64,000 nt of DNA from Escherichia coli (GTDB lineage Bacteria > Pseudomonadota > Gammaproteobacteria > Enterobacterales > Enterobacteriaceae), in NCBI RefSeq assembly GCF_041886205.1, contig NZ_CP169029.1; one strand, 5' to 3'. Shown here piece by piece: positions 1 through 4,315 of this stretch (position 1 is its first letter; every line of letters starts with the position of its first letter). A program made the position numbers.

Positions 1-3000
1 CTGTGAGACGGCTGATTGTGTAATGCACAGCTTTTGTGCCGCGCGCTCAAATCCTCGTTCACGTATCACCGCATCCAGTGCCTGTAATGTTCTGTAGTCC
101 GGGCGTTTCATTGCTGTTGTCTGCTCCTGGTAAATGCTTTTTCCTGCACTATGACACAATTTTGTGTCAGGTTGCATATACCGAAGCCGTCGGCGGGTAA
201 CATTTGTATTCGTGGTTAAACGCGCAGCTTAAAAGATCAGGGATGTGCGCTAATGCATTTCGCTCAGCGAGTTCGCGCCCTGGTTGTGTTGAATGGCGTG
301 GCGTTATTGCCTCAATTTGCCTGTAAACAGGGGCTTGCGAACGGTGAACTGGTGCGCCTGTTTGCACCGTGGAGCGGCATACCCAGATTGTTGCATGCCT
401 TATTTGCGGGGCGAAAGGGGATGCCTGCCATTGCGCGATATTTTATGGATGAGTTAACCACGCGGCTTGCCAACGGGGTCTGAATCGCTTTTTTTGTATA
501 TAATGCGTGTGAAATTTCATACCACAGGCGAAACGATCATGACGCAGGATGAATTGAAAAAAGCAGTAGGATGGGCGGCACTTCAGTATGTTCAGCCCGG
601 CACCATTGTTGGCGTAGGTACAGGTTCCACCGCCGCACACTTTATTGACGCGCTCGGTACAATGAAAGGCCAGATTGAAGGGGCCGTTTCCAGTTCAGAT
701 GCTTCCACTGAAAAACTGAAAAGCCTCGGCATTCACGTTTTTGATCTCAACGAAGTCGACAGCCTTGGCATCTACGTTGATGGCGCAGATGAAATCAACG
801 GCCACATGCAAATGATCAAAGGCGGCGGCGCGGCGCTGACCCGTGAAAAAATCATTGCTTCGGTTGCAGAAAAATTTATCTGTATTGCCGACGCCTCCAA
901 GCAGGTTGATATTCTGGGTAAATTCCCGCTGCCAGTAGAAGTTATCCCGATGGCACGTAGTGCAGTGGCGCGCCAGCTGGTGAAACTGGGCGGTCGTCCG
1001 GAATATCGTCAGGGCGTGGTGACCGATAACGGCAACGTGATCCTCGACGTCCACGGGATGGAAATCCTTGACCCGGTAGCGATGGAAAATGCGATTAATG
1101 CGATTCCGGGCGTGGTGACTGTTGGTCTGTTTGCCAACCGTGGCGCGGATGTCGCGCTGATCGGCACGGCTGATGGCGTTAAAACCATTGTGAAATGATC
1201 TGACGGGGGAACCTCCCCCGTTAAAAAAATTCTCTTCATTAAATTTGGTGACATGTGTCACGTTTTTACCCGGCTATTGTCGATTGCTCTAAATAAATCC
1301 TCTAAACCAGCATATTCAACCAAGAAATACCTTTGCGTGATATTTCCTCAACATCGCGACGCAAACGTTCATATTGCCGCAATATTATTTTTTGATATGT
1401 TGAAAGGCGGATGCAAATCCGCACACAACATTTCAAAGACAGGATTGGGTAAATGGCAAAGGTATCGCTGGAGAAAGACAAGATTAAGTTTCTGCTGGTA
1501 GAAGGCGTGCACCAAAAGGCGCTGGAAAGCCTTCGTGCAGCTGGTTACACCAACATCGAATTTCACAAAGGCGCGCTGGATGATGAACAATTAAAAGAAT
1601 CCATCCGCGATGCCCACTTCATCGGCCTGCGATCCCGTACCCATCTGACTGAAGACGTGATCAACGCCGCAGAAAAACTGGTCGCTATTGGCTGTTTCTG
1701 TATCGGAACAAACCAGGTTGATCTGGATGCGGCGGCAAAGCGCGGGATCCCGGTATTTAACGCACCGTTCTCAAATACGCGCTCTGTTGCGGAGCTGGTG
1801 ATTGGCGAACTGCTGCTGCTATTGCGCGGCGTGCCGGAAGCCAATGCTAAAGCGCACCGTGGCGTGTGGAACAAACTGGCGGCGGGTTCTTTTGAAGCGC
1901 GCGGCAAAAAGCTGGGTATCATCGGCTACGGTCATATTGGTACGCAATTGGGCATTCTGGCTGAATCGCTGGGAATGTATGTTTACTTTTATGATATTGA
2001 AAACAAACTGCCGCTGGGCAACGCCACTCAGGTACAGCATCTTTCTGACCTGCTGAATATGAGCGATGTGGTGAGTCTGCATGTACCAGAGAATCCGTCC
2101 ACCAAAAATATGATGGGCGCGAAAGAAATTTCACTAATGAAGCCCGGCTCGCTGCTGATTAATGCTTCGCGCGGTACTGTGGTGGATATTCCGGCGCTGT
2201 GTGATGCGCTGGCGATCAAACATCTGGCGGGGGCGGCAATCGACGTATTCCCGACGGAACCGGCGACCAATAGCGATCCATTTACCTCTCCACTGTGTGA
2301 ATTCGACAACGTCCTTCTGACGCCACACATTGGCGGTTCGACTCAGGAAGCGCAGGAGAATATCGGCCTGGAAGTTGCGGGTAAATTGATCAAGTATTCT
2401 GACAATGGCTCAACGCTCTCTGCGGTGAACTTCCCGGAAGTCTCGCTGCCACTGCATGGTGGTCGTCGTCTGATGCACATTCACGAAAACCGTCCGGGCG
2501 TGCTAACTGCGCTGAACAAAATCTTCGCCGAGCAGGGCGTCAACATCGCCGCGCAATATCTACAAACTTCCGCCCAGATGGGTTATGTAGTTATTGATAT
2601 TGAAGCTGACGAAGACGTTGCCGAAAAAGCGCTGCAGGCAATGAAAGCTATTCCGGGTACCATTCGCGCCCGTCTGCTGTACTAATTCCCCTTCTCTGAA
2701 AATTAACGGGCAGGTCACTGACTTGCCCGTTTTTTTATCCCTTCTCCACACCGTTGCCGCGTTGCGCATTCTACTTTGCGAGTCTGCTCCAGAAAATAAA
2801 TCAAAGTCAGATCAATGCGTTGTGTTTATTTAATGGGGATTTACGATGGCGGGACAGCATGGGGCTGTAACGGTAAAGCCCTCACCGAAGCGAGGGCTTA
2901 AAGGAGAAGGGTTATGATGCGACTTGTCATCATACTGATTGTACTGTTACTGATAAGTTTCGGAGCTTATTAACAGTCAGTCTCAGGGGAGGAGTCATCC

Positions 3001-4315
3001 TCCCTTACCCTTACTCACTAAATTAGGTCAAAGAATCAACGATGTCAATCAGGGCGATGCGGGGTGCATCGCCCTGAACCGATCATTTGATAGACCCTTC
3101 ATCGCCCACGTTTACTGCCGTAATAGATCCTTTTTCCCAAAAATTATCTCTGTTTTGCATGGGGTTTTTCGAGCACGCTCGAAGAAAAGATTTAAAGGTA
3201 GATCAATGCGTTGTGGTTATTTAAAGAGAGCTTACGATAGCTGGGCAGCATGGGGCTGTAACGGTAAAGCCCTCACCGAAGCGAGGGCTTGAAGGAGAAG
3301 GGTTATGATGCGACTTGCCATCATACTGATTGTACTGTTACTCATAAGTTTCCCAGCTTATTAACAGTCAGTCACAGGGGAGGAGCAATCCTCCCTTACC
3401 CTTACTCACTAAATTAGGTTAAAGAATCAACGATGTCAATCAGGGCGATGCAGGTGTGTCGCCCTCACCACTCCCAGACTTTCGACGGTGTAACCACCGC
3501 AGGAAGAGGGATATCCCACTCTTCAACGGGGAGTTTTTCCACCAACTGACAATCATGCGCATAACCCACCGGTTGCATTTTATAGTGCTGCCAGTTTTGT
3601 AAGGTCCGATCATAAAAACCACCGCCCATTCCCAGGCGCTGGCCGTACTCATCAAAGGCGACCAGCGGTGTGATCAACACGTCTAATCGGGAAAGGGGTA
3701 GCACGTCACGCACATCCAGTTTTGGCTCATGGATCTTCAACCTGTTCATCACCAGTTCGCTTTGCGGATGGTAATTCAGGAACAGCAAATTACCGGCACT
3801 AAAGGGATGCAAAACTGGAAGATATACGCGCTTACCGGCGCGCCAGAGTTGTTCTATGAGTGGCTGGGTGTCGAGTTCGCCATCAAAAGAGAGGAATACA
3901 GCGACCGTATGTGCCATCACCACCGGGGGATAAGTCATCATCCGGGTAGCGGCTTGTTGACCCATTTCCTGCTGTTGTTCCGGCGTTAACGTACGACGAC
4001 GTTGCCGAATCATTTTGCGGATTTCTTGTCGGGATAATGTCAGTGGGAGTTCTGGTAGTTGCGTCATGGCTGGTGCCAGATAAGAAGGGAATCTCCGAGA
4101 TGCCGCCGCAGGCTGTAACCCTTGAACCCTTGGTTCAAGGTGAATGTGTCGTCGCAGTTTTAAGGCTTCTCGGACGGACCGAGCATGCTCACCAACCGCG
4201 GAGCGCCACATTCTTGTGGTATGAAATATCGGCTCAGGGGACTGGCCCGCTTGCGAACATCTCAGAGAAATTTTGTCTTCACGGTTACTCTACCACAGTA
4301 AACCGAAAAGTGTCA

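Follow-up and report, generated by a model that had tools for sequence, protein, structure and literature searches.

Escherichia coli K-12 MG1655 carries five copies of ibs (PMC4147584), a gene family whose small hydrophobic products are toxic on overproduction and damage the membrane (PMC2887945; PMC2943612; PMC4147584), and whose expression is opposed by antisense Sib RNAs in type I toxin-antitoxin modules. Tandem duplication is typical of ibs-sib loci (PMC2887945), and Fozo et al. 2010, who counted six Ibs genes in EDL933 and seven in Sakai, two O157:H7 strains, inferred lineage-specific duplications (PMC2887945). Here we describe such a locus in a stretch of 64,000 nucleotides of the E. 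coli contig NZ_CP169029.1 (assembly GCF_041886205.1), hereafter the window. We identify, with high confidence, the intergenic region between serA and fau of this window as a tandem pair of SibC-type ibs/sib modules.

The K-12 literature provides the mechanism by which modules of this kind would act. The + strand of each unit would code for Ibs, a hydrophobic membrane toxin of 19 aa, and the - strand for a Sib RNA, ~141 nt long and in complete overlap, that has a promoter and a terminator of its own. Pairing between Sib and the ibs mRNA would rely on two target recognition domains that act independently, TRD1 contacting the 3′ part of the open reading frame (ORF) and TRD2 the Shine-Dalgarno sequence and start region; it would block translation and probably trigger cleavage by RNase III. 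In SibC, TRD1 spans +46 to +68 in the P5 loop and pairs within the ORF, and TRD2 spans +99 to +115 in the single-stranded J1/7 and pairs with the translation initiation region (PMC2943612). Either domain alone is sufficient for repression (PMC2943612; PMC4147584). Furthermore, SibC can be redirected to ibsD by giving it the SibD sequence at either G49CU51 or C107-C113, and Sib repression in K-12 has been reported only between cognate pairs, with the exception of ibsA (PMC2943612).

The closest relative of the window units is K-12 ibsC/sibC (b4665/b4446; formerly QUAD1c/RygC), which has the same locus, orientation, flanks and predicted fold. It differs in being present as one copy instead of two, in reading AGC at codon 17, in the middle of TRD1, where the window has GGA and CCA, and in having C113 where the first of the two window Sib RNAs has U. 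The head-to-tail arrangement of two modules in one intergenic region is also that of K-12 ibsA/sibA-ibsB/sibB (yegL-mdtA) and ibsD/sibD-ibsE/sibE (yqiK-hldE), with periods of 335 and 376 bp, respectively, compared with 391 bp in the window. These K-12 pairs are more diverged, showing 37 and 15 differences between their Sib RNAs against 8 here, and 3-4 in TRD2 against 1. Two further systems, ldr/rdl (the LDR repeats) and zor/orz (z3289/z3290 of O157:H7), likewise combine a small hydrophobic toxin with a small RNA that represses it and are duplicated inside a single intergenic region, with a copy number that varies among strains (PMC2887945). Their sequences and peptide families are however unrelated to Ibs/Sib, and Orz is not a fully overlapping antisense RNA.

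The tandem modules between serA and fau

A repeat search of positions 2300-4000 found one family of direct repeats in the serA-fau intergenic region, consisting of two copies of 289 nt at 2775-3063 (the reference copy) and 3166-3454 that are 89% identical, far beyond chance, with a start-to-start spacing of 391. A weaker yet significant similarity continues to the left as far as ~2760 and ~3151 (z = 5.9; a score matched by 0 of 500 shuffles), and over the next 75 nt to the left a shuffle test showed no relationship between the copies (z = 1.2). Because the similarity is significant up to these points and is then lost, the repeat unit is about 290-316 bp in size, with unit 1, proximal to serA, at 2760-3075 and unit 2, proximal to fau, at 3151-3466. 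The original prediction had proposed, from the sequence alone, a tandem Ibs/Sib duplication between serA and ygfA with units of ~270 bp and a period of 391 bp, each encoding a 19-aa hydrophobic peptide. The duplication, its period and both peptides are borne out by the repeats and by the results described below, the unit size has to be revised upwards, and ygfA, the correct locus, now goes by the name of fau.

Both units contain a full-length Sib gene. The Rfam SIB_RNA model (RF00113) matches the - strand of unit 1 at 3048..2898 with 134.2 bits and the - strand of unit 2 at 3439..3289 with 137.0 bits, in both cases over model positions 1-147 of 147, which include the Sib promoter (positions 1-30), and with more than twice the gathering score of 56. 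Mapping the annotated K-12 sibC gene (141 nt) onto the window places the putative RNAs, each of 141 nt, at 2872-3012 (Sib-1) and 3263-3403 (Sib-2), both on the - strand. The alignment to K-12 ibsC/sibC that had been suggested as a check gives identity to SibC at 135 of the 141 positions for Sib-1 and at 136 of 141 for Sib-2. When aligned with all five K-12 Sibs, the two RNAs are of the SibC type: they depart from SibC at 5-6 positions and from SibA, B, D and E at 33-57, and their TRD2 differs from that of SibC at one position in Sib-1 and at none in Sib-2. Both are predicted to adopt the same minimum free energy structure as SibC, at -55.2 kcal/mol (z = -5.96) for Sib-1 and -54.8 kcal/mol (z = -4.53) for Sib-2, and 0 of 200 shuffled sequences were as stable.

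The signals expected for transcription of the two Sib RNAs are found at corresponding places. The Sib-1 promoter consists of a -35 element TTGACA at 3048..3043, a 17-nt spacer and a -10 element TAATTT at 3025..3020, ending 7 nt before the +1 at 3012 that follows from the K-12 sibC annotation. The Sib-2 promoter has identical hexamers at 3439..3434 and 3416..3411, the same distance to +1, and one substitution in the spacer relative to unit 1. At the other end, each unit has the terminator hairpin P7, GCCCUCGCUUCGGUGAGGGC, followed by UUU; the Sib promoter hexamers with their 17-nt spacing and the P7 terminator are identical to those of K-12. A consensus scan for promoters and terminators yielded the terminator of serA and a pair of weak promoter-like sites, a number not above chance. 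It is blind to Sib promoters, whose -10 TAATTT fits three of six consensus positions, so that it is uninformative on them. K-12 SibC is bound by sigma-S RNA polymerase (PMC4447067), and Cappable-seq of EDL933, which carries the two-copy spacer, detected the expected Sib transcription start sites with the two copies not resolved (PMC10469882).

On the opposite strand, each Sib gene encloses an ibs coding sequence. The ibs-1 ORF (2914-2973, +; ATG at 2914, stop codon ending at 2973) lies wholly within Sib-1 and encodes the 19-aa peptide MMRLVIILIVLLLISFGAY (WP_071524576.1, 'IbsC'); ibs-2 (3305-3364, +; ATG at 3305, stop codon ending at 3364) lies wholly within Sib-2 and encodes the 19-aa peptide MMRLAIILIVLLLISFPAY (WP_001387035.1, 'Ibs family toxin'). 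The first is identical to K-12 IbsC at 18 of 19 residues, differing at residue 17 only, and the second at 17 of 19, differing at residues 5 and 17. In both units a Shine-Dalgarno sequence GGAG is situated 8 nt upstream of the ATG, in unit 1 at 2903-2906. Both ORFs are called as Ibs toxins, one as IbsC and the other as Ibs family toxin, by the Prokaryotic Genome Annotation Pipeline (PGAP) in strain 6EVA, which is 100% identical over the locus.

We assigned the ibs promoter hexamers from the sequence and the start sites by homology to the K-12 ibsC mRNA, which is 159 nt long and has a 5′ overhang of 18 nt beyond SibC (PMC2943612). The candidate ibs-1 promoter has a -35 TTGTGT at 2820-2825, a 16-nt spacer and a -10 TACGAT at 2842-2847, with a predicted start at 2854, and the region 2820-2847 is identical to K-12. 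The candidate ibs-2 promoter stands in register with it (+391), with a -35 TTGTGG at 3211-3216, a -10 TACGAT at 3233-3238 and a predicted start at 3245; the -10 elements of the two units are thus identical and the -35 elements are 1 nt apart. Mapped from the K-12 ibsC mRNA and SibC coordinates, the two mRNAs would extend over 2854-3012 and 3245-3403 on the + strand. With this placement, mRNA positions G50, G51 and G53 fall at 2903, 2904 and 2906 within the GGAG, in agreement with the published numbering (PMC2943612).

Taken together, each unit has all sequence-level features of the Ibs/Sib family, namely a match to the Sib covariance model, an ORF with a ribosome-binding site inside the Sib gene, homology to Ibs, promoters and a terminator, as well as those of the SibC subtype, namely closest similarity to SibC, a SibC-type TRD2 and location between serA and fau. 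Judged by these signals, a predicted Sib promoter and terminator and a predicted ibs promoter are present in both units, each unit having its own.

Distribution and history of the two-copy state

We examined the locus in 5426 complete E. coli genomes. A query covering 2600-3600 of the window matches 5425 of them, at an identity of at least 99% in ~1450, and with less than 80% coverage in only about 2 of the 5425. The spacer between the units (query 3072-3170) was found in 1858 of the 5426 genomes (34%), once each, including EDL933 and a Sakai-lineage strain, and this number agrees with the 1871 genomes that have a second, off-diagonal match to the 2600-3600 query. Both toxin ORFs are annotated by PGAP not only in 6EVA but also in ECOR29 and in an O157:H7 strain. 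A single ibsC/sibC is present at this place in K-12 MG1655, DH1 and many others, as had been stated for K-12 in contrasting it with the two diverged copies of the window. The two-copy state is therefore, in view of the RefSeq annotations and its frequency of 34%, already known and not peculiar to this strain; it is a common and probably old E. coli polymorphism.

Other copy states exist. In the genome TR01 (labelled 'O157:H7', NZ_CP033605.1, locus 1587-1793), serA and fau are separated by 207 nt that hold no ibs/sib module. What is cleanly deleted is the stretch between the ibs 5′ untranslated region and the Sib -35; the latter element is kept, as is the ibs promoter, making this a natural null allele. 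In TB06051 (NZ_CM129850.1, coding sequences at 543-602 and 935-994 of the locus), both copies encode a K-12-type IbsC and their Sib regions are identical, pointing to gene conversion from one unit to the other or to a separate duplication of recent date. SCPM-O-B-8794 (NZ_JAATUR010000026.1, 'E. coli'), a species-representative genome, also has two copies, with matches at 59-77 and 450-468 and a spacing of exactly 391, and matches only parts (27 + 16 nt) of the inter-unit spacer of the window. Of the 7296 matching places of the 2600-3600 (serA-ibs-fau) query, one is on a record classed as plasmid.

Species-representative genomes were surveyed with an exact SibC-type 19-mer and then with Rfam and blastn; 14 of the 22 hits to the 19-mer, which had arisen by chance in unrelated phyla, were set aside, and the survey covered species other than E. 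fergusonii and Salmonella. A single copy adjoining fau and ssrS was found in E. albertii, Escherichia sp. MOD1-EC7003, Escherichia sp. E1V33 and Citrobacter sp. MGH106. The copy of MOD1-EC7003 encodes exactly the unit 2 peptide and has a Sib region 1 nt from Sib-2, and that of E1V33 encodes the O157 unit 2 peptide. Since single outgroup copies have a unit-2-like peptide, an origin of the duplication within E. coli is likely, unit 2 (the '...PAY' type) being the probable ancestral type and unit 1 (the '...GAY' allele, with Gly17 and U113) the probable derived copy. In another genus, Pseudocitrobacter faecalis DSM 27453 has two SIB_RNA matches at 2670-2820 and 3012-3161, 342 nt apart and beside 6S RNA and fau, which probably represent an independent tandem duplication; the related locus of P. 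vendiensis has one SIB_RNA match.

Some single-copy strains, K-12 among them, may be secondary collapses of the pair. The K-12 copy is not the simple product of a single crossover between unit 1 and unit 2, as its diagnostic sites alternate between the unit types. This alternation suggests gene conversion or shared polymorphism, and from the mosaic nature of the K-12 copy the alleles of the locus appear to have been shuffled by gene conversion or unequal crossing-over.

Differences between the copies and possible cross-repression

Sib-1 and Sib-2 differ at 8 of their 141 positions (17, 18, 30, 50, 51, 61, 86 and 113), and seven of these eight lie at positions that are unpaired in the predicted structure, in the P2, P5 and P6 loops, a bulge and J1/7. 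The hypergeometric P of this bias towards unpaired positions is ~0.002-0.003, a value somewhat overstated, two of the changes being adjacent doublets, and such a pattern is what is expected under structural constraint on both RNAs. Three of the eight differences fall in TRD1, including positions 50-51, which double as codon 17 of the toxin; this codon is GGA (Gly) in unit 1, CCA (Pro) in unit 2 and AGC (Ser) in K-12 ibsC. In TRD2 the only difference is position 113, which closes the core on its 3′ side and is U in Sib-1 and C in both Sib-2 and SibC.

We scored pairs of Sib and ibs RNAs by their contiguous complementarity over TRD2, with G-U pairs allowed. Sib-1 can form 55 bp with the ibs-2 mRNA (87-141), including a U-G pair at position 113, and Sib-2 can form 51 bp with ibs-1 (62-112), a run that is broken by a C-A mismatch at 113. 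For comparison, SibC and ibsD of K-12, an experimentally discriminating pair, reach 13 bp. Because one matching TRD suffices for repression and TRD2 is nearly the same in both copies, some cross-repression between the two copies is on balance to be expected, unlike between the insulated K-12 paralogues. With TRD1 diverged and TRD2 changed only at position 113, and there asymmetrically (a U-G wobble for Sib-1 on ibs-2, a C-A mismatch for Sib-2 on ibs-1), we tentatively suggest that the locus may hold a young pair of Sib paralogues midway to orthogonal specificity. If so, repression between the copies would be one-directional or partial, and the pair together with the natural 0-, 1- and 2-copy variants would form a natural series for the evolution of cis-antisense specificity.

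A less likely alternative is that the copies are already fully insulated, each Sib repressing only its own ibs mRNA, with orthogonality arising from the TRD1 loop (codon 17) and the single TRD2 difference. The differences are well placed for such an outcome, in that those in TRD1 include the region of positions 49-51, whose exchange gave SibC a new target in the work of Han et al., and the one at position 113 lies inside the C107-C113 core of TRD2. On the other hand, Han et al. found a single matching TRD to be enough (PMC2943612), Sib-2 has the same TRD2 as SibC, and the TRD2 of Sib-1, 1 nt off, still forms a G-U pair with the ibs-2 mRNA. Full insulation would furthermore have to be achieved with 8 differences, compared with 15-57 among the K-12 paralogues.

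Several observations weigh against our interpretation of two SibC-type modules with some cross-repression and an origin within E. coli. The K-12 pair SibD and ibsE has a run of 50 bp, ending at position 111, and K-12 repression is nevertheless reported as cognate-only except for ibsA, which speaks for insulation and makes the expectation of cross-repression weak; given this pair, discrimination may require no more than a mismatch towards the 3′ end of TRD2, such as that at position 113 here. Near-identity to K-12 is also what suggests that the G17 and A5/P17 peptides would be toxic and that both Sib RNAs would be transcribed. Finally, the direction of evolution rests on few outgroup genomes, and the K-12 allele, a mosaic of unit-1-like and unit-2-like sites, points to a history blurred by gene conversion.

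That one copy is an inactive, decaying duplicate, leaving a single functional module, is improbable. Nothing specific speaks for it beyond the TTGTGG in place of TTGTGT in the ibs -35 of unit 2 and the one substitution in the spacer of its Sib promoter, whereas neither ORF is disrupted, the two Sib RNAs reach 134-137 bits and share the SibC fold, and the differences between them avoid the stems. Unit 2 is moreover almost identical to the sole copy of an outgroup species, and the ~1450 genomes that match at 99% or more do so over the whole 1-kb query, with both units and their flanks.

A last explanation, that the units are repeats of the generic repetitive extragenic palindromic (REP) or bacterial interspersed mosaic element (BIME) kind, or an assembly artefact, with accidental ORFs, could appeal to the G+C-rich hairpin that closes each unit and is next to inconceivable given a full-length Sib covariance match and an Ibs ORF in each unit and the same arrangement in 1858 independently completed genomes. 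A REP or BIME identity is itself refuted (the original prediction had named REP-type repeats as a possible refutation), such elements being short imperfect palindromes of ~35 nt that cluster and hold neither coding sequence nor a specific RNA gene, and the units having ~290-316 bp with a Sib gene and an ibs ORF, of which only the terminal ~24-29 nt are palindromic.

The tandem pair matters little, as publications already cover the Ibs/Sib family with its tandem duplications and strain-variable copy number and both genes are in RefSeq; in the literature covered, which was partial and had Fozo et al. 2008 outside it, we found no sentence naming the serA-ygfA duplication specifically. Its modest value lies in a locus with 0, 1 or 2 copies, the copies differing almost only in the loops that initiate pairing, which could make it a natural testing ground for the specificity rules of TRD1 and TRD2 from K-12.

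Flanking sequences and neighbouring genes

The locus is bounded on the left by serA (1453-2685, +) and its intrinsic terminator (2705-2731, +), which lies outside the repeat, and on the right by fau (3465-4067, -), followed by 6S RNA (4271..4088) and then zapA. Between the units is a filler of ~75 nt (3076-3150) for which we found no homologue in the left flank, the K-12 sibAB, sibC and sibDE loci, the rest of the window or the single-copy outgroups. Between the window and O157 haplotypes, divergence is greatest in the inter-unit spacer, filler included.

Unit 1 ends in a G+C-rich hairpin of 12 bp at 3049-3077, with a folding free energy of -24.1 kcal/mol on the + strand and -25.5 kcal/mol on the - strand. 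It is a copy of the weaker hairpin (-16.5 kcal/mol) at 3442-3465 that ends unit 2 and lies directly after the fau stop codon. The source of these unit-end hairpins may be the fau 3′ stem-loop, duplicated along with the module.

Elsewhere in the window, positions 17780-17857 (-) match nucleoid-associated noncoding RNA 4 (naRNA4, RF02564; CssrE) with 72 bits, compared with a gathering score of 59.5. The sole tRNA gene of the window is a tRNA-Gly with anticodon CCC at 38032-38105 (+).

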